Positions 11,437-47,220 are shown, counted from the stretch's first letter. The stretch: 48,506 nt of DNA from Thermoproteota archaeon (GCA_049700215.1 JBNAVT010000015.1:1-48506); one strand, 5' to 3'. Notes: generated by a model not told the origin, from the letters alone. Numbers and translations: made by a program.

Positions 11437-11445
11437 GCGTAGGAA

Positions 11446-20013: not shown

Positions 20014-20027
20014 TAGCGCGCGCGCTA
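20014..20027. repeat. Perfect palindrome TAGCGCGCGCGCTA (junction motif)
   Basis: Read directly; lies 57 bp after the second immunity-like gene. Confidence 0.9.
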
Positions 20028-20249
20028 AGAGGGAGGTTCGTTCTTCAATCACCCTTTGTATTAGAACCAGGAAAGGAAGAGAGGGTAAAAGTTACATTCT
20101 TACTGGAAAGCGGTACTCTTGAAGACCTTTTAACACTCATTTCTCAGAGACCTCCTATAAGCCTTTCAGGAAAAGCCACTCTAATCTTAAACTTGGCGGA
20201 GCTTCCCCTTAACATATCCATCAACTCTTGGGCTCCGTGGTGATTAGTT

Positions 20250-20879
20250 TTGGAGAAGTTTAGAATACCCTGTTTGATTAGCGGGGTGCTTTTTCTAATA
20301 GTATCCTTAATTGGCGGATCATGGTGGGAACTGATTGGTGGTGAGGCTTCCAAACCAGTTTTATACTTGGGCTTCTCGCCCTTCGACTTCAAAGTTGAGC
20401 TTCTTGGTTCACGGGTCGTTGAACCATCGCCATTTATGACTGCCCTATTCGTATCAGAAAGACTTCTTGCTATCCTTGGGTCAATAACGATAATCGTTGG
20501 CTCAATATTATACAAGAAAACATGGTCCCTGAGGCTCCTTAACCTTAGACCCTTTACTATGCCAGTAGGGTTTGGGATGTTAATTCTGATTGGCGTTATC
20601 TTGATAAAACTCTTAATAACACGCTTCGTCCCTTTAATAGATCGGGCTTTTCCAGACCTGCAGGAAGCATTAATGCCCTACTCAAACCGATACTTAACCA
20701 TAAACCTTCACTCAGTTATGCATGTCAATGGTTTCGTGAAAGTCAGTGTAACATCCCGGTTCACCATACAATTCTGGCTTGCAATACTCTCAGGAGCATT
20801 CTGTCTGGCAGGCATGATCATTCGTAGAATAGGAAAAAGGCCAAAGCCACCTCTACCATTACCCCCACCGTCACAGTAG
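20250..20879 (+). CDS. Hypothetical integral membrane protein (~4 TM)
   Basis: Four hydrophobic segments and a Pro-rich tail. Confidence 0.7.
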   Translation: MEKFRIPCLISGVLFLIVSLIGGSWWELIGGEASKPVLYLGFSPFDFKVELLGSRVVEPSPFMTALFVSERLLAILGSITIIVGSILYKKTWSLRLLNLRPFTMPVGFGMLILIGVILIKLLITRFVPLIDRAFPDLQEALMPYSNRYLTINLHSVMHVNGFVKVSVTSRFTIQFWLAILSGAFCLAGMIIRRIGKRPKPPLPLPPPSQ

Positions 20880-20931
20880 ATATTTTAAACAATTTCCTTA
20901 TTTATCCTAAATCTGTTCGATACTCACAGGA

Positions 20932-21516
20932 TTGAGTTCATTAAACACAGCGCGGCGAAAAATCTCCACGAGCCTAAAAAGAAGCCCATTCCTTGGGCTT
21001 GGACTGCTTTTTCTAGCATTTTCCGTGATGTTGGGGGCTAGGCCAGTATCATACACTGGGGTAGAGATGGAGAAGGAGCTTTGCCGAGAAACTCGGGTTC
21101 TTGAGCCGTATAGCATTGAATGGCTCTCGGTTCACGTCACCCCCTATTATCCCGCCAAGATGAAGAACCTGACTCTAAGTGTCTCTGCTTCCGAATACGC
21201 CTATAGAAGGTTCAGCCTAATGGTTTACGCGTTGAAGCCCGAGGAAACAGCCGGCTTCTCAGAGTGGTGGGCTGAAATCGAGGAGCACGGGATTTACGAG
21301 GAGCCTAATTCCTCGAAAGCGTTGCACGACGTTAAGGATGTTTCAGAAACAACCGCCATGGTTCCGATTACGATCTCCAGAGCCTTCGAGCTATGCTTGA
21401 TAATCTTAACAATATGCGAATATGAGAAGAACCTGGACAGGAGAAAGATTAAGGCTTATCTGAAATTATACCCGAAGAGTGTTGAGAAGGTTATCAAGAA
21501 TGCCGGGCTTATCTGA
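20932..21516 (+). CDS. Hypothetical protein with N-terminal TM; possibly chimeric or truncated
   Basis: N-terminal hydrophobic helix. The last ~40 codons are more AT-rich than the rest. Confidence 0.45.
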   Translation: MSSLNTARRKISTSLKRSPFLGLGLLFLAFSVMLGARPVSYTGVEMEKELCRETRVLEPYSIEWLSVHVTPYYPAKMKNLTLSVSASEYAYRRFSLMVYALKPEETAGFSEWWAEIEEHGIYEEPNSSKALHDVKDVSETTAMVPITISRAFELCLIILTICEYEKNLDRRKIKAYLKLYPKSVEKVIKNAGLI

Positions 21517-21715
21517 ATTCGTTTCCTTCGTAGCTGAAAAATCGGGTGTTAAGGATACGAGCTTAATAGAGTTGGATATAATTCTGCATAGAATGCTTAA
21601 AGAATTTTGTTCTTTACTGTTTCCACAAAATATCTCTTAAGGGAGGTAGCTGTTTGACAAAATGCTACTTCGGTTACTACCGGTTTAGCATTGACCTAGA
21701 CTTTACTTGGAGAGA

Positions 21716-22115
21716 TCAGGAAACATGGGCCGGTTCGGGGGAGAAGGAGCTGAGGGGAAAGCTGTTAGATGAAATAAGGGTTTTCGCCTCTTCCTTAGTG
21801 TACTCTCTTACCAAGTATCTTGAAGCTATGTAAGCGTCTTCTAAAAGACGGATCTCGGTTTTATTCTCCTCAAGGAAACTTGCAAGCTCTTTGCAATCAG
21901 GCAGCCTATTAAGAATCGAAGCGAGAGTCAGTATCGAGCGTACCCTGGGGTAATTACCTATTTTCTCCAGCAGTATTGATTTAAGATGGGGCTGCACCGC
22001 CTGCTCCGATAAGAAGGCGGCCAAGTCGTACTCTCCTGAATTAAGGCTCTAAGGCTCTTGTGAAAAAGGATTTTGCCCTCTTCCTCAAAAGCTTCACTTC
22101 ATAGGTACGCGGCAT
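21716..22115 (-). pseudogene. HEPN-domain gene, frameshifted
   Basis: MPRTYEVKLLRKRAKSFF.. reads in one frame and GEYDLAAFLSEQAVQ...LEDAYIASRY in another. The break is near the TAAGGCTC tandem at 22042-22057. Confidence 0.75.
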
Positions 22116-22333
22116 TACAAGAAAAATGTTTAGAGGGACTTATTAAAGTTTTCAGGATAGCTCGCGCGTCCAACCTGAAAAGATTGCGGAAACCATAGTA
22201 AGCCCTCAGCTAGGAATCTAGCACGCGCTCCCGTTAAACCTGAAGAAGCCTATAGCACGCTGGACAGGGTCCTACTGCGCAGCGGGTAGAAAAAGATTCT
22301 TAAACACCCCGTCTGGAGGATTAGGAGGTAAGG

Positions 22334-23389: not shown

Positions 23390-23399
23390 GTGTTGGAAG

Positions 23400-24197: not shown

Positions 24198-24209
24198 GGA
24201 TGCTTAAAA

Positions 24210-26853: not shown

Positions 26854-27288
26854 ATGGCGAGAAAAGTATTATTCATATGCGTGCAAAACAGTTTCAGAAG
26901 CCAGGTTGCAGAAGCATTCTTCAACTCAAATCCCCCGCTAGGATGGGTCGCGGTTAGCGCCGGCCCGAAGCCTGCTGAAAACGTCAACCCTAAGGCAGTC
27001 CAACTTTTAAAGGAAAGGGGAATAGATATTTCCGGCAGAAAGCCTAGGAAGCTGACTAGGGAGATGGAGGCTGAGGCGGATATTGCAGTAATAGTCTGCA
27101 GCGGCTCAGAATGCCCCGTGGTGAACGTTAATCATGTTGAGAACTGGGGAATAGAGGACCCTGCTGAAATGAGCCTGGAGGATGCTCGCAAGATTGTGAG
27201 CAAGATTGAAAACATGGTTAGGAACCTGGTTGAGAGAATAGTCAGGGGCGAGGCTCCTTCCAGGGGAATCGGGCTTAGCCTAGGCTGA
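26854..27288 (+). CDS. LMW-PTP/ArsC-family protein
   Basis: VLFICVQNSFRSQ.AEA, SAG, C....CP and W..EDP motifs. Confidence 0.88.
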   Translation: MARKVLFICVQNSFRSQVAEAFFNSNPPLGWVAVSAGPKPAENVNPKAVQLLKERGIDISGRKPRKLTREMEAEADIAVIVCSGSECPVVNVNHVENWGIEDPAEMSLEDARKIVSKIENMVRNLVERIVRGEAPSRGIGLSLG

Positions 27289-27333
27289 TTGTAACCTGCG
27301 GCTGGCAAGCGGAACGGTTAACCATTTAAAACG

Positions 27334-28437
27334 CTACTTGTAAACAGCCACGGGTCTTCCAAGCAGCCCGGCATCTAGCTCCACCAGTCCCAGCCCGCTT
27401 TCCCGGGGGAACAGTCTCATAGAGTTCTCAACCCTCGTCCCTCCTTTCTTAACAAGCTTGTCGGCGTGAAGCAGGTCGCAATCAAGATCCGCATAATTCA
27501 CGTTTCTAACTCCTGCTGCAAAATGGGCTCCTGCAGCAATACCTATTTCAGACTCGCTCATACACCCGATCATGCAGGATACTCCCGCAGCCTCAGCCAC
27601 GTCGGATATTTTCCTCGCCCTCAGTATTCCACCGCTCTTCGCAAGCTTAATGTTCATCATGTCGACAGCCTCCTCCCGGATGAGCCTCAGCGCGTCGGAG
27701 GGTGAATGAACGCTTTCATCAGCCATAACCGGTATTGGAGACTCCCTCCTAACCCTAGCCAGGCCCTTCACGTCGTGAGCGGGAACCGGCTGCTCGACGA
27801 ACCGTATTCTAAACTTCTCCACCCTGTTTAAGACTTCAACAGCCTGCTCGGGGCTCCAGCCCTCGTTCGCGTCAACCCTTATCTCAACACCCTCCCCCAC
27901 GGCCTCGCGAACCATCCTTATTCTTTCAACATCCTCGGAAGGGTTTACGCCAACCTTAAGCTTAAGAGCCCTGAAGCCCTTCTCCACAGCCTTGACGGCG
28001 TCAATAGCCATCTCCCTAGGAGTCTTAATGCTCAGCGTGAAGTCAGTCAGAACCTCAGCCCGGTAGCCTCCGAGAAGCATGAAAAGCGGTTTCCCAGCGG
28101 TCTTCCCGAGAATATCGTGGAGAGCAATATCTATAGCAGCCTTGGCGGCAGGATTCCCCTCGACAACCTGGTCCATGGTCTCCAGGTTCCGCTCAATCCT
28201 CAGTGGGCACGCGCCCACCAGCCTGGGCGCGATTCTAGACAGGGCTTCGACAACAGTCTCCACAGTCTCCCCAGTTACCCTCCTGGATGGAGAAGCCTCC
28301 CCCCAGCCTTCAACACCATAGTCGGTAACTATCCTAACCACGACGTTGCGGCTCTCCACGCTCGCGCCCGGCGCAATCCGGAAGGGCTCGAAAAACCGGA
28401 GAGTCACCGGATAAACCTCGATTCGCTCTATGCCCAT
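27334..28437 (-). CDS. Dipeptide (L-Ala-D/L-Glu) epimerase, enolase superfamily
   Basis: GWGEA, KLKVG, VDANEGW, EQP, ADES, NIKLAKSGG, GCM.E and DLD motifs. Confidence 0.9.
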   Translation of the reverse strand: MGIERIEVYPVTLRFFEPFRIAPGASVESRNVVVRIVTDYGVEGWGEASPSRRVTGETVETVVEALSRIAPRLVGACPLRIERNLETMDQVVEGNPAAKAAIDIALHDILGKTAGKPLFMLLGGYRAEVLTDFTLSIKTPREMAIDAVKAVEKGFRALKLKVGVNPSEDVERIRMVREAVGEGVEIRVDANEGWSPEQAVEVLNRVEKFRIRFVEQPVPAHDVKGLARVRRESPIPVMADESVHSPSDALRLIREEAVDMMNIKLAKSGGILRARKISDVAEAAGVSCMIGCMSESEIGIAAGAHFAAGVRNVNYADLDCDLLHADKLVKKGGTRVENSMRLFPRESGLGLVELDAGLLGRPVAVYK

Positions 28438-28478
28438 CTCGCCCAGACCACCCTTAACGGTAGGCAGCAGGGTTTCAA

Positions 28479-29750
28479 CTAGCCGCCTACACCCGCCGCT
28501 TCAAAACCCCTGTTCTTAAGATAATCCTGAACTTTCTTCTTAACGTCTTCGGGAACCTCCCGTTTAAACGGGAAGCTCTCCGCGTTAGCCATCCGCGAGA
28601 GAAACTCGCTGACGACAATCCCAACCATCTTGAAGCCGATTGGCGCTGAAAACCGTGCATCATCCTCAGGAGTGTGAATATGCGCCCCGGCGCCACTCCT
28701 CCTGTAGAAGCTTACAGAGGGCACGCCCCTGTTGGAGAAGGGCATGCTGTCGGAACTGTAAACATCCTGGGTTACGGAGAGGTTTACGCCAAGCTCCTTC
28801 GACAAGGCCTCTAGATAAGTCTTCACCTCAGCCGGGCCGGTTACTACAGCGTTACACCCGCCTATCGCACTCCCGTTCACATCCAGGTTGATCATCATCA
28901 TTACTTTCTCAACCTCATCCTTATGCTTCTCCACGTAGTTGAAGGAACCTCTTAGCCCAAGCTCCTCAGCCGTGAAGAAGACGAACCTAACTGTCCTCTT
29001 CAAATCCATGCTGCTTAAAGACTTAGCCAGCTCCATGAGAAGAGCCACTCCGCCAGCGTTGTCAACACCACCCTTCACACCGTAGACAGTGTCGTAGTGA
29101 GCCCCGACGACTATTATCTCCCCAGGGTATTTCACACCCTTCTTCTCAACAATAATGTTGAACGTTTCCGCTTCAAACTCCTCCTGCAGGAGGACCAGCC
29201 TAGACTTGGAAGCATGGTTCTTAACAAGCCTAAAAGCGTCTTCAAACCTTATGAAGACGGTTGGAACCCTGAACCTCCTGCTTACTTCGAAAAGCCTGTC
29301 AACCTGGGAAGGCTTCCTGAAAGGCGTGGCCTCGCTTAAAACAATCCCGGAGGGCTCGTGCTTGGAAAGCTCAAACAGCTTGTCGACAGTAAGCGGTGGC
29401 TCTGAGAAAAGCAGTATCTCCCCCCTCGCCCCGGAGAGAAGCAACGGGTCGCCGGTTTCAACGTAGCGCAGAGGGGCGACAACACCCTCTTCAGGAGTTG
29501 AACCGCTGAACCCGACTCCCCTGCAGTCAACCTGCTCGCTCCAAGGCTCCAGAACATGGAGCTCGCTCCTCAGAATCCGGAACGTTTTAACAGTGAACTC
29601 CTCCAGCAGCGGCTTGTAGCCGGCTTTCTCCATGACGCTCAAAACATACCTCCTAGCCTCCTCTTCACCAGGGGTTCCGGCAAGCCTCTCGCGGGAAGCC
29701 AAGCCGGTTAGAAAGCCGTACGCCTCCTCCTCCAGAAACACGCTGCCCAT
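28479..29750 (-). CDS. M28 family aminopeptidase with PA domain
   Basis: R.AGT.GE, GAHYD, G.DNAGG, AEE.GL.GS, NLD, SD..PF and HT..D motifs. Confidence 0.9.
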   Translation of the reverse strand: MGSVFLEEEAYGFLTGLASRERLAGTPGEEEARRYVLSVMEKAGYKPLLEEFTVKTFRILRSELHVLEPWSEQVDCRGVGFSGSTPEEGVVAPLRYVETGDPLLLSGARGEILLFSEPPLTVDKLFELSKHEPSGIVLSEATPFRKPSQVDRLFEVSRRFRVPTVFIRFEDAFRLVKNHASKSRLVLLQEEFEAETFNIIVEKKGVKYPGEIIVVGAHYDTVYGVKGGVDNAGGVALLMELAKSLSSMDLKRTVRFVFFTAEELGLRGSFNYVEKHKDEVEKVMMMINLDVNGSAIGGCNAVVTGPAEVKTYLEALSKELGVNLSVTQDVYSSDSMPFSNRGVPSVSFYRRSGAGAHIHTPEDDARFSAPIGFKMVGIVVSEFLSRMANAESFPFKREVPEDVKKKVQDYLKNRGFEAAGVGG

Positions 29751-29862
29751 AGGGGCTTAAGACGGGTTCAACAAGTTAAAAATGTTGCGAAAACCCGAGG
29801 AGCCTGCTCGCCATGCAGGGAGTGAGGAAAAATTTATTTTCGACACTAGTGTAGCCCCGGCG

Positions 29863-30975
29863 ATGAACGAGAGGGAGAGGCTGCTTAGAACACTCCAGTT
29901 TAAAGAGGTTGACAGGGTTCCGGACTACGAGTTCGGCTACTGGACTGAGACGATTGACCGCTGGCACGCTGAAGGCCTGCCCCTGCATCTCCACACTATT
30001 GGAGACGTCGAGGACTTTTTCATGCTTGAAGGCTGGGACACGATAGACATGCTTCCAGTGAACACTGGACTATGGCCCCCGCCGCCAGCGAGAAGAATCA
30101 GGGAGTACGACGACAAGATGGTGATAGACGATGGTCTGGGAGGAGTCTACGTAACTAAGAAATGGACCTCCACGATCCCGCAATACTTAAGGTACCCGAT
30201 TAGAAGCAGGGAGGACTGGGAGAAAATAAGACCCTTCTTCAACCCGGATACCCCGGGGAGGATACCGTTAAGCTACGACGAGATAATAGGGGTCTACAGG
30301 GAGAGGGATTATCCCCTAGGCATAAGCGTCGGAAGCCTCTACGGCTGGCTGAGAAACCTGATGGGCGTCCAGGGAATCTCAATAGCCTTCTACAGGGACC
30401 CGGACTGGGTGGCTGAAATGATGGATACGCTGGTAAACCTCTGGATAAACATGATTCGAAGAGCCTTGAGAAACATCAGGGTTGACTTCGCATCATGGTG
30501 GGAAGACATGGCTTACAACATGGGGCCGCTTCTCTCAGTCAGGCTTTTCGAAGAATTCATGGTTCCAAGGTATAGGAGGGTGACGGACGTTTTAAAAGAG
30601 TACGGTGTTGAAATAAACATTCTGGACTGCGACGGGAAGATAGATGAGCTTGTCCCAGGATGGTTGAAAGCAGGAATAAACTGCATGTTCCCGATTGAAG
30701 CGAAGTATACGAGCCCGGTGAAGCTTAGAGAACAGTATGGGGACAAGGTTCTCCTAATGGGCGGGGTTAACAAGCTCGCGCTCATTGAGGGGCCTAGAGC
30801 AATAGACAGGGAGCTTGAAAGCCTTTCTCAGCTCGTAAAGGAGGGAGGATACATACCAATGGTTGACCACAGGGTTCCGCCGGACGTGTCGCTCAGCAAC
30901 TACGTGTACTATTTGAAGGCTAAGAGGAAGATCATAGGGAGAAAAGAGGAGCTGCCTTATCCGGAGACAGCTTAA
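29863..30975 (+). CDS. Uroporphyrinogen decarboxylase-like (URO-D/MtaA-CmuA superfamily) protein
   Basis: VDRVP, LRNLMG, WEDMAY..GPL.S, DCDG, GGV.K and GGYIP.VDH.VPPDV motifs. Start moved to ATG 29863. Confidence 0.82.
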   Translation: MNERERLLRTLQFKEVDRVPDYEFGYWTETIDRWHAEGLPLHLHTIGDVEDFFMLEGWDTIDMLPVNTGLWPPPPARRIREYDDKMVIDDGLGGVYVTKKWTSTIPQYLRYPIRSREDWEKIRPFFNPDTPGRIPLSYDEIIGVYRERDYPLGISVGSLYGWLRNLMGVQGISIAFYRDPDWVAEMMDTLVNLWINMIRRALRNIRVDFASWWEDMAYNMGPLLSVRLFEEFMVPRYRRVTDVLKEYGVEINILDCDGKIDELVPGWLKAGINCMFPIEAKYTSPVKLREQYGDKVLLMGGVNKLALIEGPRAIDRELESLSQLVKEGGYIPMVDHRVPPDVSLSNYVYYLKAKRKIIGRKEELPYPETA

Positions 30976-31018
30976 GGAGCGCGCGCGCAAAATCAGAGCA
31001 AGATGGAATAAACTGACG

Positions 31019-31426
31019 TTGAATCACTTCTCGAACTCCTTAGACTTATTTCTATTATATTCAAACTTCCTACAAGAGGTGACTTCCCTCCAAAAAGAAC
31101 ATAACGCACCAGACATCCAGCGTTATCTTTCAACCATCAACGCAACGGACTTTCTGAGAGGCCTTTCCTTGCTCCCCCCAGAACAACTTCAAAGGGTCTT
31201 TAAAGTTCTGATAGATACCGGCACAATAGTAGCTATAAAGAATCCACTCGAGTTGAGCCACAAGGATAGGTTAACCTTGATCGATAGATTAAGTACGACG
31301 GCTAGAGAACTCGAGCAGGTCGTTGGAGTGAGTAAGATCACCCAAATACCAACGGACCTCGACAGACAACTTATAGAAAGATGTAGAGACAAAGACTACC
31401 ACGACATCGTAAGTAACGCCTTCTAG
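31019..31426 (+). pseudogene. Hypothetical ORF, probably 3'-truncated
   Basis: Its TAG stop is supplied by the TAGCGCGCGC motif. The end (LD..LIERC..Y.D.V..AF) resembles the start of a TIGR02391-type domain. Confidence 0.45.
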
Positions 31427-31518
31427 CGCGCGCATCTTGATCTCCATGATTTTGACAGAGCATCTGTAAATAAGCTGGAAAAGAGGTTTGGCAAGAAGTT
31501 TAGTAGACTTGCAAACAT

Positions 31519-35239: not shown

Positions 35240-35254
35240 ACCAATATTTAAATA
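35240..35254 (+). promoter_or_regulatory. Putative BRE/TATA (ACCAATATTTAAATA)
   Basis: Lies upstream of the transporter gene. An identical 15-mer precedes tbp at 44426-44440. Confidence 0.6.
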
Positions 35255-35291
35255 TGTGGCATACATAATATGCATGGAGGATGAAAATCTT

Positions 35292-37394: not shown

Positions 37395-37470
37395 AAACCC
37401 GCAGCACTCCCACTTTTTTTAAAAAACACAAACACCCGTGACAGAAGTTTAAACCAGAACAGGCGCGCGC

Positions 37471-37612
37471 TACAAGCAGGCTGAACCAGATCTTAAACCC
37501 GTTAAACCGGCGACTGAAACCCGCTTGAAAAAAGGATGAAAGTCACAGATTCACAACCATAAAAACAAGCCGTTCAAGCCCGAAAAACCATAGTAAAACA
37601 CACATAAAAACC
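37471..37612 (+). repeat. Dispersed ~140-bp intergenic repeat, copy A
   Basis: Shares AAGCAGGCTGAACC, AGATTCACAACCATAAAA and AAAAACCATAGTAAAACAC with 44247-44396. Its first 26 bp are identical to 40641-40666. Confidence 0.85.
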
Positions 37613-37662
37613 AGTATTGTGTGCGCTGAAACCACTTTAAAGGGCATTCGGGTTTTCAGAAT

Positions 37663-37692
37663 TAATCAGAGATAACCTTTTAAGTCTGATTA
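37663..37692 (+). promoter_or_regulatory. Inverted-repeat operator TAATCAGA-N14-TCTGATTA bracketing a TATA-like box
   Basis: Ends 25 bp upstream of the AbrB-type antitoxin ATG, consistent with TA autoregulation. Confidence 0.65.
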
Positions 37693-37716
37693 TATAACGA
37701 CAAACTGATGAAGTAA

Positions 37717-37971
37717 ATGAATCTGACTATAGAGACAAGAGTCGGAAAGAGGTACGCGATTTACCTGCCTAAGATCGTGGTCAAGACCCTCGGCATGAAG
37801 GAGGGGGACAGAGTATTGCTGAGAGTCTCGGGGGAGCGCATCATCCTAGAGATACTCCGCGACCCCATAGAGCTGGCACTCCACGGGAACAAGTTTGCTT
37901 CAATAAAGCCTGGGGAGATAGAGGCGATAAGCGTTGAAGAGCAGGCAAACCAAGCTAAGAATACTCCTTGA
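37717..37971 (+). CDS. AbrB/MazE-family antitoxin
   Basis: RVGKRY.IYLPK.V...LG.KEGD.V motif; overlaps a PIN gene. Confidence 0.88.
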   Translation: MNLTIETRVGKRYAIYLPKIVVKTLGMKEGDRVLLRVSGERIILEILRDPIELALHGNKFASIKPGEIEAISVEEQANQAKNTP

Positions 37972-38383
37972 CACATCCTTCATACTACCATCCCTAGGGA
38001 TCGACACGGGGATGGAGGCTTTGGAAGGCTTGAGAATACTCGCGGAGGCTAGGGCAGAAATACACTACTCGCGCTTCAGCATACTTGAATCACTCTGGGT
38101 GGCCACTAGAATAACAGGAGGAATACCCGGCGAAGCCTTTAACACAGGGCTCAGAAGCATTCTCGAGACCGGCAGGTACACGGAGGTGAAGGAGGATTCC
38201 AGAGTCTTCAGCGAGGCTCTAAGACTGTACACACAAGGCCACAGGGACATGATCGACAACATACTCTACGCAAGCTCAATCCACTTCGACCTCAAGCTGC
38301 TCACACTAGACAGAGAACTCAAGGAATTTATACGCAAGAATGGTTTGAAAGACACGCTAATAACGCCAGACCGACTAACTTAG
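37934..38383 (+). CDS. vapC: VapC/PIN-domain toxin
   Basis: ILLDTS, E, D.ID..LYA and LLTLD motifs. Confidence 0.88.
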   Translation: MKSRQTKLRILLDTSFILPSLGIDTGMEALEGLRILAEARAEIHYSRFSILESLWVATRITGGIPGEAFNTGLRSILETGRYTEVKEDSRVFSEALRLYTQGHRDMIDNILYASSIHFDLKLLTLDRELKEFIRKNGLKDTLITPDRLT

Positions 38384-38631
38384 CACCGAAGCAGAGGAGT
38401 ATGAAAACGAATCACCCCTACAAGCGTGCGAGCGATGTAACTCACTCTGGTTCCAACAGGGCTGACTCTGGCTTACTCTATCCGGTTGCCGAATAGAACT
38501 TTCCTCGAAATGGAAGTGACTTGGTTTCTAGAAGTCATTTTCATCTCTCCATATCTTCAACAGAATTAACCCCTAGCCAAGTCTTATATTTAGATTTCCA
38601 TCCTTCATTCAACGCTGTCTGACGGCTCAGC

Positions 38632-38653
38632 CATTTAGCGTGCACGCTAAATG
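38632..38653. repeat. Perfect 22-bp palindrome CATTTAGCGTGCACGCTAAATG
   Basis: Equals its own reverse complement. Confidence 0.92.
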
Positions 38654-39133
38654 TTTCCGAGTATGTTCAATGCTAAGACCAGCTCTTCTAGAAGCCTTAA
38701 ACGCTCTGTAGCCGAGCAGGATGACAACCGCATCCAGGAGGAGCATAGCAGCCCTCAGACAAGATCAGATAACCAGAACAATACTTGCCAAACCAGTCGC
38801 GGCGGAAAGCACTGGGACGCGCGCTGGCCTTTTACAATTCCCTAAAACGTCTCGACCCGTCGAGAAGAAACCGGATAATCGTACCGGGAATAATGATGCT
38901 GACAGCGGCCTCTGCCCTATACATGTCGATATTCATGGGCAGCGGTTTCGCTGCTCAAACGATACTACCGCTTAAACAAATAGGAAGAGCGCGCTACTGA
39001 GAAGATGCGGTATTGTCCTTCGCCATCTCATACTTTGGTTTACAGTATTATCGTAGGCTACGAGTTTAGCGCGCGAAAAGGACATTATAATGTCCAAAAA
39101 ATTTAAATATTGGAACACCATAGTATCCTTTGG

Positions 39134-40387
39134 TTGAGCAGTATCTTCGAGTTCAATCCTTGGTAGGAGAGCGGTGGAATAAACAGGGAGTTCGAGAGAC
39201 TCCAGAGGAGGATGCTTTTCAGCGTGTTAAAATCCAGCCTTCAGAGGAGACCGATTGACGTGATAGTCGGATTAAGAAGAGTTGGAAAGACCGTGCTAAT
39301 GTACCATTTGATAGACCATCTTTTGAAAAACGGGGTAGACTCAAAGAGGATTCTCTATTTCTCTTTCGACGTGGAAAGACAAGACATCGGGAGAATCATA
39401 AGGGAATACGAAGAGAGAGTGTTAAAAGCAAGGGTGAATGAGAAACGATGCTTCCTGTTTTTCGACGAGATTCATAAGCTTGCAGACTGGGAAAACAAGA
39501 TAAAAGTCCTTTACGATCTGAACCCGAACGTAAAGATGGTTCTATCAGGCTCCGCATCCTTAAACCTGATGAAAGGAAGCAGGGAGAGCCTGGCTGGAAG
39601 AGTAGTTTTCCACACCCTGTCCCCCCTGAAATACTTAGAATTCCTCAAGCTTAAAGGTGAAAAAATTCCCGATGAAAACGATTTCGAAATCCATGAAAGA
39701 AGGCTCTCCATCTTATTCGGCGAGTACCTGGTAAAAGGCTTCCCTGAAACCCTAGAGATGAGCGAGAGCGAAGCAAAGAACTACGTAAGGGAGCTTGTAG
39801 CGGAAAGAGTAATCTACAGGGATATTCCGGAAAGCTTCAGAATAGAAGACATAGAGATAGTGAGAATCCTTGCAAACTACTGTTTCGAAAACCCAGGGAC
39901 CATCATCAACGTGGACTCCCTTTCAAAAGACCTGGGGAGACACAGGAAAACAATAAGAAACGCTCTAAACTATCTGGAACTCTCGTTTCTGATAAAAAGA
40001 GTCAGCAACCTTAGAAAAAGCCTTCTTGCAAGCAGCAGGAAAAACAAGAAAGCATACCCCTTGCACCAATCCCTCGCAACAACAAGGGATGAAGACAAGA
40101 TTCTCGAAACCACGGTGAGGAGTGAAATCAACGCTGAATACTACTGGAGAAAAGGAAACAGTGAAGTGGATTTCGTGATTAGAAACAAGGAGATAATCCC
40201 GGTTGAAGTTAAAAGCACGGAGGAAGTAAAAACCAGAGACCTAAACCCACTAGTCAAATTCTCAAAGCTTTTCAACGCGAGAAAAGCAGTAGTCCTCTAC
40301 AGAGGAGTGGAAAAAGAGCTCCAGAAAGACGGAGTAAAAATCAGCCTAATACCGATACTAAAATACCTATGCTACCCCAAACCATAG
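39134..40387 (+). CDS. AAA+ ATPase (AAA_14/DUF4143, COG1373-like) with an in-frame TAG near the N-terminus
   Basis: GLRRVGKT, FFDEI, SGS, ESLAGR, GFPE and EVDF...PVEVK motifs. FNPW* at 39152-39166; an intact ORF resumes at ATG 39212. Confidence 0.85.
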
Positions 40388-40640
40388 ACCAGCCAGCACT
40401 CCGTCCCCTAAGAATACCAACTCTCCACCGGCCTATTCAGAAAAACCCTAACATAGGCCTCATCCTTATTCAAAACCCTCACCAAGTCGCCTAAAGAGAA
40501 AACACTAATCCTGGAATCCCGCAGCACCCTAACAACATCGCCGCTCCTACAAAACCACTATAATTCTCATAAATTTAAAGTTATCATTTTTGATAACCAT
40601 AAAACTACGTTTTATCTAGGAACAAAACCTAGCCGAAAAT

Positions 40641-40666
40641 TACAAGCAGGCTGAACCAGATCTTAA
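40641..40666 (+). repeat. Partial copy of the dispersed repeat (26 bp identical to 37471-37496)
   Basis: TACAAGCAGGCTGAACCAGATCTTAA. Confidence 0.9.
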
Positions 40667-40706
40667 GCATGGCCTGGTTACAACATCACTGTCAATGAAA
40701 ATGAAA

Positions 40707-41537
40707 CTAATAGTGGCGCAGCGTGCCCTTCTTCAAAACCTTCCTCTCCTCCCTGGCGAATACCATTATACCTGCAAGCATCCAGGAAACATTGAAAAGA
40801 AACAGGGGTATTAGGAGACCTGTTAACTCACCTAAGCCCCTGTTCATTAGCAGTAGGCTCCTCATCCCTTCTATCGCGTAAGTCGGCGGCAGCAGGTAGG
40901 AGAAGCATCTTAAGACAGGCAGGAGGACGCTTAACGGATAAGATATTGGGAGAAGTAGACCCAGTAGCGAGCTTAGGAAATTTACGAACCCGTTGTGCTC
41001 TTTAAAATCCAGAACTATTCCGGCGAGAGAGAAACCCATCCCTATAAAGCTGGGCAGGGCGATGAGGAAGAATAATAATGCAAGGGGCAGGTTTAAGATC
41101 CTCACGTTCAGGCCGAATACTACTGAAGCCAGGGTTATCTGCGAGGAAACCCATAGGAGGGTCGTCAGCATCGAGCTGAAAGCTTTCCCCAGCAGAATGG
41201 AAAACCTGCTGCACGGTGCTAGGAATGTTGACTCAAGGGTTCCGCTCCACTGCTCGCCTCTTAAAGCATAGCCTATCCCCCACAGGGTTGAGTAGGCGAA
41301 GCTGGAAACTATCATCCCGACTATCGTGAAAGAAACATAGTCTCCGGTGCTAGTCAGCCTCGCCAGGTTGTCAGAGTAAGGCGAGCCCACGAGAGCCATT
41401 CCGTATATCACTAGCGACAGGACCCAGAGCAGAGGCATCAAAGCATCAAAAAGCACCCAAATCGGGTACCTTATGTAAAGCATCAACTCCTTCTTCATCA
41501 CGGCAGCAAGAACCCTCATCTCATCAGTGAGACTCAT
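40707..41537 (-). CDS. ABC-2 type exporter permease
   Basis: EQWSGTLES...P.SR...LLGK motif and ~6 TM helices. Confidence 0.88.
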   Translation of the reverse strand: MSLTDEMRVLAAVMKKELMLYIRYPIWVLFDALMPLLWVLSLVIYGMALVGSPYSDNLARLTSTGDYVSFTIVGMIVSSFAYSTLWGIGYALRGEQWSGTLESTFLAPCSRFSILLGKAFSSMLTTLLWVSSQITLASVVFGLNVRILNLPLALLFFLIALPSFIGMGFSLAGIVLDFKEHNGFVNFLSSLLGLLLPISYPLSVLLPVLRCFSYLLPPTYAIEGMRSLLLMNRGLGELTGLLIPLFLFNVSWMLAGIMVFAREERKVLKKGTLRHY

Positions 41538-41550
41538 GTCCCACCATCCT

Positions 41551-42420
41551 CTAGTAGGCTTCAACCGCACCCCTCCTCCTAACCCTCTTCTCAACAGCGT
41601 TGAATAGAAGCATGCCCAGGATTAGAAACACCAGTGTTGTAGCGGCAAGGTAGGAAAGGGCCATGGCAATATTCAGATAGGGGTTGAACGATGGTAAAAG
41701 GAATGTTCTCACAGCCTCTAAAGCGGGTGTCAATGGGAATACTATGCTTACCATCATGATGTAATAGCCCACACCCCCAAAGAAGAATATGAATGTCCTC
41801 AAAGGATAATTAACCGGGCAGATAATGTATATGAGGGTGTCGACGAAGTTCAATAATGCACCCGGCTCCCTGTACATCAAAATTAAACCGGAGAGCACAA
41901 ACCCAATGCCGTAAAGAGCAAAGATCATCAGCAATACTGCTGAAGCTGCGAAAAACAGGTTCTCCCCCCTTATCCTAGCCCCGAACAACAAGCTGGCCAA
42001 GATGAATTGAACCACCGCGTAGAAAGTAGTTAACACGCTGTCCGACAATGCTTTCCCAAACAGTATGAAAAACTTGTTGCAGGGCGTGACAAGGATTGTC
42101 TCCAGCGTCCCTCCCCACTGTTCCCTCCTCAGGGAGAGCCCCATCCCCCATAAGGCTGACATAACGTAAGCGTAAAGCGAGCTTCCTATTATTGCGAAGG
42201 TTACGAAGTCAGAGCTTCCAGCGAGCTCTCTAAAGGATTCTGAAAACCTTCCTCCGACGAGAGCATGCCCCTGGAATACGAAGGGTGCCAGCCAGAAAAT
42301 CGGCATTATCGTCCAGAAAACAACCCAAAGAGGATACCTGAGGTTGATCAGTATCTCTTTCTTAGCCGTTGAAACAGCAACCCTAAGCTCCAGAATCAGG
42401 TTCCCCGCATCCAAGTTCAA
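41551..42420 (-). CDS. ABC-2 type exporter permease
   Basis: EQWGGTLET...P motif and ~6 TM helices; paralog of the neighbouring gene. Confidence 0.88.
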   Translation of the reverse strand: MNLDAGNLILELRVAVSTAKKEILINLRYPLWVVFWTIMPIFWLAPFVFQGHALVGGRFSESFRELAGSSDFVTFAIIGSSLYAYVMSALWGMGLSLRREQWGGTLETILVTPCNKFFILFGKALSDSVLTTFYAVVQFILASLLFGARIRGENLFFAASAVLLMIFALYGIGFVLSGLILMYREPGALLNFVDTLIYIICPVNYPLRTFIFFFGGVGYYIMMVSIVFPLTPALEAVRTFLLPSFNPYLNIAMALSYLAATTLVFLILGMLLFNAVEKRVRRRGAVEAY

Positions 42421-42919
42421 TCGCCCAACACCCCCCAGTAAGATTCATGAAGACATCCTCCAGCGTTGGCCTCTCTATGCTTAAGGAGAAAATCCTGCAG
42501 CCTGCTTTCGAAAAGACTCCCACAACCTCCTGAATGTTAGCGTCAACATTCTTCATGCATATCCTAATCATGGTCCTACCGTCTTGCTCAACATTGGCTA
42601 CTCTGCAGTCTTCGACAAATGTCAAATTTTCAACCGTGCTCAAAACCCTCTCATCCAGCTTGTTTACAACCATCTTCAAAACCTCGTTCATGCCAATCAA
42701 GGCTTTCAGCCTCTCAGGTGAATCCACGGCGGCTATCCTGCCTTTATTTATAAAGGCGACCCTGTCGCACATCTGGTCAGCCTCCTCCATGTAATGGGTT
42801 GTGAGCAGTATGGTCTTACCCTGTCTCTCGTTAAGCTCCTCTTTTATGAACAACCTTATGCTCCTCGAAAAACCAGGGTCTAGGCCCAAAGTCGGCTCAT
42901 CTAGAAGAAGAACCTCAGC
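42383..42919 (-). pseudogene. ABC transporter ATP-binding subunit, N-terminally truncated
   Basis: Walker B (LLLDEPTLGLD), TTHYMEEA and PTLEDVF are present. Walker A and the signature motif are absent. Homology starts at AGCGCGCGCTA (42917-42927). Confidence 0.85.
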
Positions 42920-43184
42920 GCGCGCTACACAGGAAAAATGACGCTTAAAGACCAGTTGACAAGCCATTTTTAAAGCATGCTTATAAGACGAACTCTGCTC
43001 ATGACATTTAGGTAACTTATGGAACGTAAGCATGTGAACAAAACCTGTTAACACGCGCTAAAATACTCCTTTCTTTTCTCGCCAAGTTACTTAAACATTA
43101 ATCCCTCAAATAGCTCGCGTGAGCGGAGTCAGGGGAAACGAGTTCTCGATTTAAGAATATGGCGTCTAGCCGGTTCAGTATCTT

Positions 43185-43625
43185 TTACATCCAGTACTCC
43201 GGTTTCTCGCTCCTCCTCTCCTTCTCCTCGCCCCTGAACCTCCACAACCCTTCTCCAGGCCTCTCTATCACCAGCATAAGCTCCTCAGCCAGCTTATCAC
43301 TTATAAGGGCTTCAACCTCGATGTGAGATATGACTATGTCCGATAAAACACTTCTGCCTTCACCCTCCTCAGTTAAAACGTTCACTTCAGCTCCAGACGG
43401 TATCTTGTAAACCCTCGTCGGCCCTCCCGCGGTATCGTAGATTTCAACGACCGCTTCCTCAGGCAGATTCGGCCATAGGCCCAGCTGCTCAGCAGCCTTA
43501 ACCGGTATGAGCAATTGAGCAACGGGTGATTCAAACCCTGTATTCACCAATGCCACTGTCTCAAGATACCTGCCATTTTTCAAAACTATCCTTATCCTAA
43601 CCCTTACGCCCACTTTTCCTCTCAC
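43185..43625 (-). CDS. Archaeal clan AA aspartyl-protease-like protein (LVNTGF variant)
   Basis: ALVNTGF, LLIP..A..LG, TAGG and E.LISD motifs. Confidence 0.7.
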   Translation of the reverse strand: MRGKVGVRVRIRIVLKNGRYLETVALVNTGFESPVAQLLIPVKAAEQLGLWPNLPEEAVVEIYDTAGGPTRVYKIPSGAEVNVLTEEGEGRSVLSDIVISHIEVEALISDKLAEELMLVIERPGEGLWRFRGEEKERRSEKPEYWM

Positions 43626-44246
43626 TCAAATACCCGGCTAAATCCCTAGGCTTAATATGTCCAATCCTAGGCCTGCGTCTAACCCATATGTGTCCAACCC
43701 GAACCCTGCGAGCCTCAACCCGACACTCCTGCTCGTTCAAGCCAAAAGTCATTCATCCAGCCGACTAAACACCATACTCGCCACATATAAACCTTAGCCC
43801 GTTCAAACAATCAAGATCCGCCTTAAAACCCCACATTGAAAACAAGTACCCAAACTCCTGGATTCGACAGGCTTAACCACCGATGCAACACCGACAAACG
43901 CGGGCGGTATGCGCAGCAACCTTACCGTTAAGATACAATGCTATATGATCCCATGGCCGTCGCCATCCATCATAATTAATAACATCCCTCTTTAACAAGT
44001 CGGTGATTGATGTTTTCTCCCTAGCGCGCGCTATCCGCGCAAGAAGCAAGAAGAGAATACGACGCCCATAGTATCAGGATGGAACCTCAGCCCCGTGCAA
44101 TATGGCTGTCGACGGCACCCGTCAACGCCAGGACAGCAAATTCCCAATATGCAAACCATGTTCCAACCATAAGACCCGCAGAGCGCGCTACCCCATACTC
44201 CTCTTATAAACACCCCGCAGCCAAAGCTTAAACACAACGGGCTTGT

Positions 44247-44396
44247 AAGCAGGCTGAACCGATACCCAGAAACCGTTAAAACCATCTCGAGCCGGGCTGA
44301 AAACCCGCGTGAAAAAAAGAAGGAAACCCACATAGATTCACAACCATAAAAACAAGCCGTTAAGCCGGAAAAACCATAGTAAAACACCCGTAAAAG
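44247..44396 (+). repeat. Dispersed intergenic repeat, copy B
   Basis: Colinear with 37471-37612, with indels. Confidence 0.85.
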
Positions 44397-44425
44397 CAGC
44401 AAAAAGAGCATAAAAACATAAGTAG

Positions 44426-44440
44426 ACCAATATTTAAATA
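44426..44440 (+). promoter_or_regulatory. Putative BRE/TATA of tbp
   Basis: ACCAATATTTAAATA, followed by a GAGGGG RBS-like sequence before the ATG. Confidence 0.65.
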
Positions 44441-44472
44441 CGCACTAACCCCTTTATAAAGAGGGGGACAAG

Positions 44473-45045
44473 ATGCAGACAACAGCAGAAAAACCCGAAA
44501 AACCAATAGTGGAAATCCAAAACGTAGTGGCATCAGTAATCCTAGACCAAAGAATAGACCTAAACCAAATCGTCAAAAACTTCGAAAACGTAGAATACAA
44601 GCCCGATCAGTTCCCCGGCCTAGTATTCAGACTCGAAAAACCCAAGACAGCAACACTAATCTTCAGCTCAGGAAAAATGGTCTCCACCGGAGCAAAAAGC
44701 GAGAAACAAGCACACGAAGCAGTCCACAAAATCGTGAGAGAACTCCGAGCCAAAAAAATAATCCAGAAAACAAAACCACAAATCACCGTGCAAAACATCG
44801 TAGCATCAGCAACACTACCAGGAAAAATAGACCTCGAACAAGCAGTCGTAAAACTAGAAAGAACAATGTACGAACCTGAGCAATTTCCCGGTCTAATATA
44901 TAGAATGCATGATCCAGACGTAGTTATATTATTATTTGCTTCTGGAAAATTAGTGTGTACTGGTGCTGTGAACGAGCAGATGGTTTACGATGCTGCGGAG
45001 AAGCTGATGGCTGAGCTAATACAGAAGGGTTTGCTAATCAGATAG
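44473..45045 (+). CDS. tbp: TATA-box-binding protein
   Basis: Two repeats of QN.VAS / Y.P.QFPGL..R / L.F.SGK.V.TGA. Confidence 0.97.
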   Translation: MQTTAEKPEKPIVEIQNVVASVILDQRIDLNQIVKNFENVEYKPDQFPGLVFRLEKPKTATLIFSSGKMVSTGAKSEKQAHEAVHKIVRELRAKKIIQKTKPQITVQNIVASATLPGKIDLEQAVVKLERTMYEPEQFPGLIYRMHDPDVVILLFASGKLVCTGAVNEQMVYDAAEKLMAELIQKGLLIR

Positions 45046-45051
45046 TGAACG

Positions 45052-45726
45052 ATGCTTAAGCCATATGAGTTTGACTTTTCTCATCCAGCGTTAAGGAGTT
45101 GTTTTTCAATAGAGTTAGTTAAGAAGTTGAAAAAAGTTAAGGGGGCTTATGATGAGCTTCTTAACCTTGCTGGCGAGCTTGATGAAAAGTTTGTTGAATA
45201 TTGCGGAAAATCCTCTGAGTATGGTCATATATATGGTATAATACGAGACTCTATTGATTCAGGTCTATCGGGTGTTAAAGATATGTTTGATCGGAATTGG
45301 GAAGATTTCTTCCAACATTATCACTTAGAAAGAAGATGTGAAAACTGTGGTGTCTCTTTGCGTGCGGATTCTCCAATCAATAAGGCACATATCATTAGGC
45401 GTCCTTTCTTTAAAAGACAAGGGACAAAAATCTACAGGGATGTTAATTTTGAGCATCATATGGCGAATACACTGATCTTATGTGCTAATTGCCATGACAG
45501 GATTGAAAAGAAGGGAGTGAACCCTAGTAAACGCTTGTTGAACAGGAGAGTAAGATTAAAGGATAGAATGCTGGTCGAATTAGAAGCAGATATTGGCTTC
45601 TTAAATGAGAAAATTTGGGAGATAACAGGATTCCTATTTGAAATTGAAAGCTATGAAAACGAGCTTAGAGAAGAACTTAACCGGAAAATGATGGAAAAGA
45701 TTGAGGAATGGGCTTACAGTTTTTAA
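45052..45726 (+). CDS. HNH endonuclease-domain protein
   Basis: CENC...KAHII...N.LILCANCH pattern flanked by helical/coiled-coil segments. AT-rich. Confidence 0.75.
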   Translation: MLKPYEFDFSHPALRSCFSIELVKKLKKVKGAYDELLNLAGELDEKFVEYCGKSSEYGHIYGIIRDSIDSGLSGVKDMFDRNWEDFFQHYHLERRCENCGVSLRADSPINKAHIIRRPFFKRQGTKIYRDVNFEHHMANTLILCANCHDRIEKKGVNPSKRLLNRRVRLKDRMLVELEADIGFLNEKIWEITGFLFEIESYENELREELNRKMMEKIEEWAYSF

Positions 45727-45828
45727 TAACTACGTGTGCCGCATTCTCTTGTCGCGCGCGCTTTGGTGCCTTTCTATTCAGAATATCTCTCGCTTGTCCA
45801 TTGCCTCAGACCTCTTGATTCATGCGCG

Positions 45829-47220
45829 CTAAAAGGGAAACCGGTGCTCCTTAAGAATATTTATGAATTTTTCCCTAGTTTCCCTAAGCTTTCCAGCAGC
45901 TTCAATGACTTTAAACGGGAAATCGGCATCATCTGAATATTCGATTTCGGTCACTAGTGAGACATCGATAAGGTCTGGTTCTGCTGAGATGCTCGAGTAT
46001 TCATGTGGCGGAATAGGTTTCACCATGAAAATGATGGATGGTTCCCATATGCACTCAACCTGAATGGGAGTTATCTTCAACGAGTCCGCGGATTCTCTTT
46101 CAGTCAAATCGATTAGTGAAGAAAGGATATCTGCTAATAGGGGAGAGAATCTCGTTATTTCATCTAAGTGGGAGCGGTCTAGAAGATATGCGACCGGATT
46201 TATTCTCTCTGTGTTTAACATATCAAGTATTTTTTTAAAAGAGGAATTCGCATGAACTCTTACCATTGTCTCACCCAAGAATAGACCAAAATATATGGGA
46301 GCACTATAAATTCTGAAACGAGGTTTCTCATCCGCTTTCTGCAACTCTGCTCTGACAAAGCCTCCGCACATATCAAACCATTGTTCATCACTCAGTTTCT
46401 GATGACGCCCGGCATATTTGAGATCCGTCACCAGACCCCAACTGGTACCTATCAGTTGAACCATCACGGTCCAGATTGGAAGACCCAACATCCCTTCCAC
46501 TAGGTCTCTGATTACAAAAGCCTTGTCATCCAGACCTAAGTTGTACACTATTTCTTCCCGAACCCTAGTCCATTCTCTCCAGAATTCCCTGATTGCTGAG
46601 GCTCTTTCAATAATCGCTTGAATCCTGTCTTCTTCGTCAGACATCACATGGTAAGGAACTTCTAAATAGAAGCCTTGAGCATCGTGATATTTGATAATGT
46701 TTCGAATTTCTCCAGCAACAATATTCATTTTCAGAGAATACTTATTGCTAATCCTAGTCGCTATCTCTGAAGCCTTCTTGAGAAGAAGATGAGTTAAGGG
46801 ATACTTTGAAGCCAGTTCCTCATCTTCAACTATTTTTTTAATATCAGTGTCAGTTAGACGTCCCTTACTTAGAAAACCTTCATTCATAACTAAATCGTAA
46901 ATTCCTCTATATCTTTGAGAAAGCAGATCCTCGCTTCTAAGAAGAAATGTTTCAACGACGAGTCTGCCATCGGCATTTATTGGATGAGGGAAATGCTGTA
47001 CGTCATGTAGTGACCTGCTTATTTCATCGGATTGCCATAATTCTTTAATAGCATTTTGATCTTCTTTCCCATGTAGAACATCGCTCACTTTTTCTCTATA
47101 TGTTTTGTCTAATATTTTTTCGTTCAGATGAACTCCGTGTTCATCTACTTCATACTTCGTATTAGTCGTATTTTCGAGGATCTGCCTTACCTTTTCAAGA
47201 ATAGAGTTCATAATATGCAT
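45829..47220 (-). CDS. Hypothetical protein, candidate immunity protein (possibly two fused domains)
   Basis: AT-rich and 32 bp downstream of a nuclease-tipped ORF. Weak similarity to 18597-19292. Confidence 0.6.
   Translation of the reverse strand: MHIMNSILEKVRQILENTTNTKYEVDEHGVHLNEKILDKTYREKVSDVLHGKEDQNAIKELWQSDEISRSLHDVQHFPHPINADGRLVVETFLLRSEDLLSQRYRGIYDLVMNEGFLSKGRLTDTDIKKIVEDEELASKYPLTHLLLKKASEIATRISNKYSLKMNIVAGEIRNIIKYHDAQGFYLEVPYHVMSDEEDRIQAIIERASAIREFWREWTRVREEIVYNLGLDDKAFVIRDLVEGMLGLPIWTVMVQLIGTSWGLVTDLKYAGRHQKLSDEQWFDMCGGFVRAELQKADEKPRFRIYSAPIYFGLFLGETMVRVHANSSFKKILDMLNTERINPVAYLLDRSHLDEITRFSPLLADILSSLIDLTERESADSLKITPIQVECIWEPSIIFMVKPIPPHEYSSISAEPDLIDVSLVTEIEYSDDADFPFKVIEAAGKLRETREKFINILKEHRFPF

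Follow-up and report, generated by a model that had tools for sequence, protein, structure and literature searches.

A short self-complementary GC tract marks DNA joints in a subclade of Thermoproteota genomes

Repetitive extragenic palindromic (REP) sequences are imperfect palindromes of 20–40 nt with a conserved head that need a Y1 (RAYT) gene, and the attC sites of integrons are structured sequences of 57–141 nt that need the IntI tyrosine recombinase. Excision of Tc1/mariner/IS630 elements and of P elements leaves footprints, short TA-flanked palindromic remnants that vary by a few bases and sometimes have a deletion beside them, and in vertebrates short interstitial telomeric repeats were inserted at sites of double-strand-break repair, as seen by comparison of orthologous loci, with the use of telomerase and its RNA template. 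The HIP1 palindrome (GCGATCGC) of cyanobacteria has sites that are conserved between genomes and lie in both coding and non-coding DNA (PMC5861425), and alternate HIPs co-occur with a matching methyltransferase (PMC4390886). Here we describe a 12-nt palindrome, TAGCGCGCGCTA, found in contig JBNAVT010000015.1 of a Thermoproteota archaeon (assembly GCA_049700215.1, hereafter G000); this whole contig (C15) of 48,506 nt is the window of our analysis. The palindrome sits exactly at joints between stretches of DNA, and it is probably, with much room left for doubt, a joint scar, a self-complementary tract left between DNA ends that were rejoined in this lineage. The G000 assembly (2.09 Mb in 85 contigs, 94.6% complete, 49% GC) encodes TATA-binding protein and a LysX/ArgX-type cluster, which identify it as archaeal, and was compared within a genus set of 17 genomes (G000 included) and a phylum set of 401 genomes; the sequencing runs holding the sequence are labelled as hot-spring metagenomes.

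The consensus unit is the 12-mer palindrome, with a core of A(GC)nT in which n is mostly 4, and also 3 and 5. The octamer GCGCGCGC was found at nine sites in the window (20016, 30979, 31426, 34747, 35006, 37463, 42918, 44024 and 45754), equal to 11 overlapping matches, against 0.46 on average, and never more than 3, in 100 dinucleotide-preserving shuffles. These nine sites, seven shorter ones (31524, 32568, 38818, 38989, 39069, 44183 and 45824) and a random expectation of less than one octamer per window had been given in a first-pass annotation made from the sequence alone, and all were confirmed. In line with its statement on intact housekeeping genes, no octamer lies within an intact conserved gene: the octamers are intergenic, overlap a stop codon (31424–31426 and 44031–44033) or lie at a gene truncation point (42918). 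Beyond the window, the enrichment extends over the whole genome. G000 has 339 overlapping matches to GCGCGCGC compared with about 28 expected from base composition (approximately 12-fold), with the tetramers GCGC (5309) and CGCG (5252) being rarer than the 7628 expected; the observed/expected ratio of 0.70 for GCGC fits restriction avoidance, without being specific to it.

A total of 274 maximal alternating-GC runs of at least 8 nt were detected in G000, with lengths of 8 nt (176), 9 nt (34), 10 nt (55) or longer (9), besides 334 shorter sites. The 165 exact octamers are preceded by A at position −1 in 138 cases and by T at −2 in 89, and followed by T at +1 in 137 and by A at +2 in 92; the base preference around the octamer ends at ±2, and the unit is thus a bare 12-mer. 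An all-against-all BLAST of the ±150 nt flanks of the 274 sites returned only five similar pairs, so that the motif does not form the core of a miniature inverted-repeat transposable element (MITE), a REP or a CRISPR (clustered regularly interspaced short palindromic repeat) unit. On a crude map of open reading frames (ORFs) of at least 100 aa, with 84% of bases coding, 186 sites (68%) were intergenic, 74 coding and 14 on a boundary, with non-coding DNA representing 16% of the genome, and 23 sites lay within 10 nt of a gene 3′ end compared with 4.1 for random positions. The palindrome carries TAG on both strands, which may explain the frequent ending of ORFs in the motif. The sites are clustered (mean 1.15 and variance 2.22 per 10-kb bin, with up to 9 in a bin), and their spacing is irregular, ranging from tens of nt to tens of kb.

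Comparison of positions 27000–46000 of the window with the genus by BLAST showed homology blocks that stop or start at the motifs, with block ends within a few bases of the tracts, in agreement with the earlier remark that the motif coincides with points where homology begins or ends. The sites and segments of the window are:

12301–22149: variable lysX–argC segment of about 10 kb in G000, shorter in G002 (about 4.3 kb) and in G008 (about 2.5 kb)
20014–20027: TA(GC)5TA, a joint with a gene 5′-truncated versus relatives on the right and unrelated low-GC DNA on the left
30979–30988: (GC)5, three bases past the stop of a URO-D family gene (29782–30975), at a synteny break
30963–40706: cassette stretch of about 9.7 kb, small cassettes parted by motif copies, absent between the URO-D and ABC transporter genes in relatives
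31424–31433: TAGCGCGCGC, of which the TAG is the stop codon of ORF 31019–31426
31524–31532: half-type site CGCGCGCTA; a block common to G011, G003, G013 and G007 starts at 31531
32568–32576: CGCGCGCTA; a YHS/CoA-binding block common to G002 and G008 starts at 32574
34746–34755: A(GC)4T, left edge of a 259-nt block (34753–35011) also present in G002
35004–35014: TA(GC)4T, right edge of the same 259-nt block
37463–37472: (GC)4TA downstream of the DUF6785 gene, a small replacement in collinear DNA
38818–39076: three short sites, CGCGCGC at 38818, A-GCGCGC-TA at 38989 and TA-GCGCGCG at 39069, bounding short non-coding fragments
42917–42927: A(GC)4TA, truncation point of an ABC ATPase gene (42383–43054, minus strand)
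44022–44033: perfect TAGCGCGCGCTA, of which the minus-strand TAG is the stop codon of ORF 44031–44411
44182–44190: short form A(GC)3TA
45753–45762: C(GC)4T, 27 nt past ORF 45052–45726
45824–45831: GCGCGCTA, giving the TAG stop of ORF 45829–47220 (minus strand)

In G002, G008, G010, G016, G012 and G015, the homology over 40707–42918 breaks off at 42918. In G002 and G008, GAAGAACCTCAG (ending in CCTCAG) is followed by GGTCGTGCAG in an intact gene with a Walker A motif, whereas in G000 GAAGAACCTCAG is followed by CGCGCGCTACACAGG and then by unrelated DNA, with the gene missing its N-terminal third (approximately 130 aa), Walker A included. The gene supplies only AG to the tract, as the first-pass annotation had seen for the terminal letters, and as the G002 and G008 genes are intact without a tract, the tract did not pre-exist. 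A replacement without rearrangement was found at 37463, where G002 reads ACAGGC TTG CAAGCAGG and G000 reads ACAGGC GCGCGCTA CAAGCAGG. To the right of the tract at 20016, homology of about 75% to G014, G005, G011, G004 and G010 runs from the first base on, and the reading frame of these five relatives continues upstream of that point, thus the G000 gene is 5′-truncated at the tract. The block 27001–30978 does not extend past the tract at 30979; the alignment of G002 and G008 ends at 30962/30978, and both genomes lack the tract and continue directly with the ABC transporter gene, with a gap of 113–130 nt between the URO-D and ABC transporter genes. Upstream of argC it is G008 that has a tract, exactly where its homology to G000 begins, with G000 lacking a tract there.

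Further joints were found on contig C2 at a locus (L194) with 13 GC tracts in 10.5 kb, which was compared with G002, G008, G011, G009 and G007. In three deletions, polarised by outgroups with the long state in common, a stretch of approximately 45 nt was replaced by GCGCGCGC (three outgroups), one of approximately 375 nt in an archaeal-ATPase gene by AGCGCGCGC (two outgroups), and one of approximately 900 nt by CGCGCGCTA (one outgroup for the left side, two for the right), and the same ATPase gene was cut off at a fourth tract, to which it contributes AGC. The outer letters (A, AG, GC or TA) match the ancestral flank at some L194 joints and not at others, which is how microhomology of 0–4 nt would be expected to appear in the sequence. 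Nine joints had a comparator (the ABC ATPase gene, the replacement at 37463, the G008 argC joint, the URO-D 3′ end, 20016, the three L194 deletions and the L194 truncation), and in 9/9 the relatives had no alternating tract of at least 6 nt at the homologous point. The alignment of truncated genes with intact orthologs, as proposed earlier, thus places the absence of the tract in the unbroken state, and motif sites were shared at orthologous positions with relatives in 0/9 of the cases compared.

On contig C19 (~10071–11562, L188/L189), an IS607-type serine recombinase gene is frameshifted at GGTTGA GCGCGCGC TAAGGAGG, with its halves matching positions 1–61 and 61–128 of Pfam Resolvase in different frames. 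An intact close copy of this gene was not found in a DNA search of the genus, so the net insertion could be 2, 5 or 8 nt. The frameshifted gene lies beside a TnpB fragment with a 117-aa open frame, together forming a decayed IS607-type element.

The association of the motif with accessory DNA was also seen in G008, using 808 kb of its approximately 2.2 Mb (two whole contigs and 120 kb of a third), ORFs of at least 80 aa and reciprocal best hits to G000. The intergenic spacers were distributed as follows:

flanking genes adjacent in both genomes: 6/53 spacers with the motif, 369/688 without
flanking genes near each other: 2/53 with, 30/688 without
adjacency broken: 3/53 with, 29/688 without
contig ends: 0/53 with, 11/688 without
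one flanking gene without ortholog: 19/53 with, 153/688 without
both flanking genes without ortholog: 23/53 with, 96/688 without

Spacers touching an ortholog-less gene thus made up 42/53 of those with the motif versus 249/688 of those without, an odds ratio of about 6.7 by hand arithmetic, which depends on crude ORF calls, has no correction for spacer length and uses a reference, G000, that is 94.6% complete.

Contigs made by another assembler from the probable source run cover positions 29500–46500 in eight pieces and cross every motif site there, contigs of at least 99% identity from a second study cross 38818, 44024, 44183, 45753 and 45824, and a contig from run X2 (43808–44318) crosses the perfect 12-mer at 44022–44033. 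An assembly artefact was therefore rejected, and the independent-assembly check suggested by the first-pass annotation favours real joints, with the motif also being present in at least nine independently assembled subclade genomes. The contigs obtained from runs X3 and X4 were all diverged, and some of their joints had short sides; contigs from both join 30956/30963 directly to 40707/40708. In a related strain, 36550 is joined to 37125 (a 574-nt deletion) with GTTAGCGCGCGCT in between, a weak case with a short side of 23, and in a related strain from run X4, 33555 is joined to 33756 with AGCGCG in between, which was likewise treated as weak. Loose contig ends in related strains carry TTAGCGCGCGCGC before 31885 and TGTAGCGCGCGCGCGCGC before 44913, and variant joints in other hot-spring runs read (GC)5 and (GC)7. 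Run X4 also shows, at 33546–33758, a spacer of 13 nt instead of 200 nt between the convergent genes for the CoA-binding and PIN proteins, and the PIN gene takes its stop codon from the short form TAGCGCGCTA in that spacer.

High counts of the motif among the 401 genomes are limited to a subclade within a single genus. Within that genus, AGCGCGCGCT was counted 118 times in G000, 88 in G008, 70 in G002, 33 in G009, 32 in G007, 18 in G006 and 16 in G010, with low counts in G013 (6), G011 (3) and G014 (3) and none in the seven other members; outside the genus counts were at control level. The perfect 12-mer scored 35, 28, 26, 14, 11, 9 and 4 in those seven motif-rich genomes in the phylum scan, 0–1 in the remaining genus members and at most 5 elsewhere in the phylum, save for one genome with 12, in which the control pattern scores 4. 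The motif-rich genomes are near relatives of G000 by BLAST (approximately 80–92% identity over shared blocks), yet G011 is as close to G000 and almost lacks the motif, indicating that the motif is young and dynamic, with fast turnover of its sites.

Of the three mechanisms put forward by the first-pass annotation, the writing of a (CG)n tract into joints by break repair is the best fit; intact relatives lack the tract at all nine joints. Under this reading, a lineage-specific break-and-rejoin activity would make or use ends bearing alternating GC. As (GC)n pairs with itself, two such ends could bridge, also in shifted registers (any even shift), and bridging in shifted registers would explain the length steps of two (6, 8 and 10 nt), while the self-complementarity and very high stability of (GC)n would give palindromic symmetry without a dimeric reader. 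Rejoining of the same two ends would give a small insertion or replacement, chewing back of one end before rejoining a deletion marked by the tract, and joining to a different or foreign end a gene truncation or reshuffled accessory cassettes, with the outer A/TA/AG letters overlapping the flanks by microhomology of 0–4 nt. Tract-bearing ends could then seed new places, allowing scars to build up in places that tolerate damage, such as intergenic DNA, decaying genes and accessory islands. The enzyme, the bridging step and the source of the tract are inferred here: the tract may be synthesised at the ends, carried on ends cut at existing copies, or left by the termini of an undiscovered cut-and-paste element.

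Several points weigh against a joint scar. No enzyme was identified, and as Ku, reverse transcriptase, PolX and telomere resolvase were not detected (see below), the end-joining machinery is hypothetical; moreover, we know of no end-joining process that produces a constant filler sequence. The nine joints were chosen where homology ended or in fetched loci and are not a random sample of the 274 sites, and the 74 sites inside ORFs of at least 100 aa fall outside the joint analysis. At some joints the A/T flanks belong to the ancestral sequence and at others to the insert, leaving the exact unit undefined, and all compared genomes are metagenome-assembled genomes (MAGs), which may lack multi-copy elements and plasmids. 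Cutting at a fixed position, TAG^CGCGCGCTA, had been suggested by four joints sharing CGCGCGCTA and was not borne out genome-wide, with only 32 occurrences of [not G]CGCGCGCTA versus 12 for the control.

A bolder version of the joint scar, which we put forward tentatively as a possibility well short of even chances, is a self-propagating 12-bp 'minimal mobile scar': a candidate enzyme of this lineage would cut at or build TAGCGCGCGCTA, self-complementary GC ends would bridge any two breaks at high temperature in a new archaeal end-joining route, and every rejoining would create a further site open to cutting. In this way the motif would cause decaying genes to be lost and accessory cassettes to be reshuffled, and any DNA between two copies would be mobilisable. 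How archaea rejoin breaks without Ku, and how accessory islands are built and pruned, are open questions, for which these genomes offer an apparent natural record of hundreds of rejoining events bearing the same 12-letter tag next to untagged sister genomes; this contrast should allow the responsible gene to be found by comparative genomics and the chemistry to be tested, through GC bridging of ends at high temperature. Should an enzyme write the tract, this would represent a novel type of end-joining or of minimal mobile element, and the tract would be a ready marker to date and map structural change in uncultured archaea. The phenomenon looks new, and a description of the motif as a genome feature was not found in the literature outside supplementary files. 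The nearest behavioural analogies appear to be excision footprints and vertebrate telomeric-repeat insertions, and the enzyme of neither was found here. Interstitial telomeric repeats resemble the motif as a constant short repeat inserted at breaks, and differ in that no reverse transcriptase was found in the 17 genomes here and the tract is self-complementary.

Pfam searches gave 0/17 genomes for reverse transcriptase (RVT_1), for Ku and for the IS630/Tc1-type DDE transposase (DDE_3), as well as 0/17 for the Y1/RAYT transposase (PF01797), and of five genomes none matched the PolX thumb domain (by Pfam) or telomere resolvase (PF16684), all of these being absences in MAGs. Ku-dependent non-homologous end joining with polymerase filler was rejected on the Ku and PolX results, and hairpin-telomere fusion scars of the ResT/TelK type on that for telomere resolvase. 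A match to Cas1 (Pfam) is present at the start of a contig. REP/REPIN sequences are similar to the motif in being short extragenic palindromes, often just past genes, in hundreds of copies; they differ in that the information of the motif lies within 12 nt and no Y1 transposase was detected, and with neither a unit of at least 20 nt nor a Y1 gene this system was rejected. A MITE or insertion sequence was discarded for want of a multi-copy interior, the segments between motifs being unique genes or fragments, and a CRISPR array for the irregular spacing and 12-nt unit, as opposed to regular repeats of 25–40 nt.

The strongest competitor to the joint scar, which we regard as doubtful but worth retaining, is that the sites are footprints of a cut-and-paste element with TA(GC)n inverted termini or a TA duplication, in which the paired termini left after excision give a palindrome of variable n, and resection of one side gives one-sided deletions. 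Excision footprints share with the motif the TA-flanked short palindrome and adjacent deletions, and the unit is indeed a palindrome bordered by TA at either end (T at −2 in 89/165, A at −1 in 138/165, and mirrored on the right). Some joints are asymmetric, a complete GCGCTA adjoining an intact flank while the opposite side has a deletion, and both the lineage specificity, similar to that of an element invasion, and the enrichment in accessory islands would be in line with this. However, no transposase or intact element was found and the flanks share nothing beyond 12 nt, the IS630/Tc1-type DDE and Y1 transposases were detected in none of the 17 genomes, and several joints show no TA duplication. 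G000 has one DDE_Tnp_1 copy, which is not bounded by the motif and whose only GCGCGC is internal and resembles ordinary coding sequence. The TnpB matches at the loci inspected are not bounded by the motif either; TnpB has five matches, mostly fragments, and of two loci inspected one had no GCGCGC, whereas in the other the sole tract lies about 1.1 kb away from the match. Even the 20-contig G008 yielded no candidate for a transposase in these searches. A virus rich in the motif was not detected in IMG/VR, in which the 14-mer TAGCGCGCGCGCTA occurs once in each of 36 contigs, and we know of no prokaryote in which excision footprints accumulate by the hundreds.

A pre-existing site of a site-specific recombinase that shuffles cassettes in the manner of an integron or shufflon, with new sites arising by recombination at secondary sites, is unlikely. 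The small-cassette arrays parted by single motif copies (window 30979–45831 and L194) do point towards it. The 30963–40706 cassettes (an unknown ORF, MarR/AbiEi-like, YHS, CoA-binding, two PIN toxins, DUF6785 and an AAA_14 ATPase) occur as the same blocks in G008, further downstream in a different order and in the same orientation. Integron attC arrays likewise consist of unrelated small cassettes (toxin-antitoxin genes, ATPases) parted by a recombination-type palindrome; they differ in that the motif also marks plain deletions inside genes. The window cassettes lie on both strands, and the site, a perfect palindrome of 12 nt, does not resemble attC. Tyrosine recombinase (PF00589) was not found in G000, with the control positive in 14/14 genomes, and the sole serine recombinase by Pfam Resolvase is the pseudogene on C19, broken by the motif itself. 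Furthermore, 12 bp is short for a recombinase site, two or three outgroups lack the motif at both boundaries of the collinear deletions of approximately 45–900 nt, and conservative recombination does not produce small frameshifting insertions inside a single gene. The recombinase site proposed by the first-pass annotation thus keeps a small probability, while its search for matching methyltransferases and recombinases, once carried out, turned up no matching methyltransferase and no intact recombinase in G000. By PF00589 the genome lacks even a XerA-type recombinase, for which incompleteness or divergence may be the cause.

An iterated palindrome like HIP1, kept by selection or by methylation-directed repair bias and arising mainly by point substitutions, is very improbable. 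The likeness lies in a lineage-specific, GC-rich palindromic octamer that is over-represented many-fold, here about 12-fold over base composition. HIP1 is position-conserved and paired with a methyltransferase, whereas here 0/9 sites are common to relatives, 186/274 are intergenic and sites originate with indels and deletions, and the analogy drawn by the first-pass annotation was dropped on these grounds and for lack of a methyltransferase. The C5 methyltransferase PF00145 had no match in the motif-rich G000, G002 and G008, and was present only in the motif-free G001 and G004, while strong matches to the N4/N6 methyltransferase PF01555 do not track the motif; absence from MAGs is not proof of absence. 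A restriction-modification system matching GCGC or GCGCGC was sought through its methyltransferase, of which no candidate was detected, with nuclease families not searched, and the suggested fill-in of a G^CGCGC cut found no support, as no such system was detected. Least probable of all is a fragile pre-existing (CG)n tract that attracts breaks, or an assembly or library artefact: alternating CG can adopt Z-DNA and all genomes are metagenome assemblies, but the tract is absent from the unbroken sequences at 9/9 joints (which also removes Z-DNA fragility as raised earlier), a 12-nt repeat is far below assembler k-mer size, sister genomes of similar origin lack the motif that at least nine subclade genomes carry, and contigs from the other assembler and the second study cross the sites.

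An Rfam scan of the window returned no family match, and NCBIfam gave no family for 10 unknown ORFs of the window. The lysX–argC segment includes low-GC DNA with an ORF of 1677 aa; the insert at 12437–19957 (38–44% GC), absent from G008 at this place, consists of this ORF (13567–18600) and three neighbours. None of these four ORFs had a Pfam match, and the two searched against NCBIfam (12437–13582 and 19286–19957) had none there.

A local repeat is present at 37471–37609, 40641–40666 and 44244–44395, with TACAAGCAGGCTGAACCAGATCTTAA identical at two places; its 14-nt core has three exact occurrences in the genome, all within the window, and a block of approximately 66 nt is 91–97% identical between 37544 and 44331. 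The first copy of this repeat begins right after the motif at 37463.

Displaced gene ends were observed for two genes. The TATA-binding protein gene (44473–45045) has a 3′ stretch of approximately 150 nt (44890–45046) with many partial copies in relatives, 1–3 kb apart (seven on contig C26 of G003, and three each on C67 of G012, C56 of G010, C21 of G006 and C8 of G011), some of these genomes being motif-free, and a (GC)7 tract precedes one of these fragments in run X2. The 3′ end of this gene resembles a hotspot for integration, with displaced gene ends left behind. At L194 (8800–8976, on C2 of G000), the last 177 nt of the phosphoenolpyruvate synthase gene have at least eight partial copies on contig C4 of G008 (73–81% identity) and more in G007 and G009, with the copies sitting in motif-rich regions. 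That the fragments of the two genes form one repeat family was rejected, as their sequences are unrelated. Finally, on contig C1 of G000 (~122930–123150; L197, 6930–7150), about 12 iteron-like AAGCAC/AAGCAT repeats spaced 10–20 nt apart end in a perfect TAGCGCGCGCTAG, and are possibly an origin or a binding array of an integrated element.

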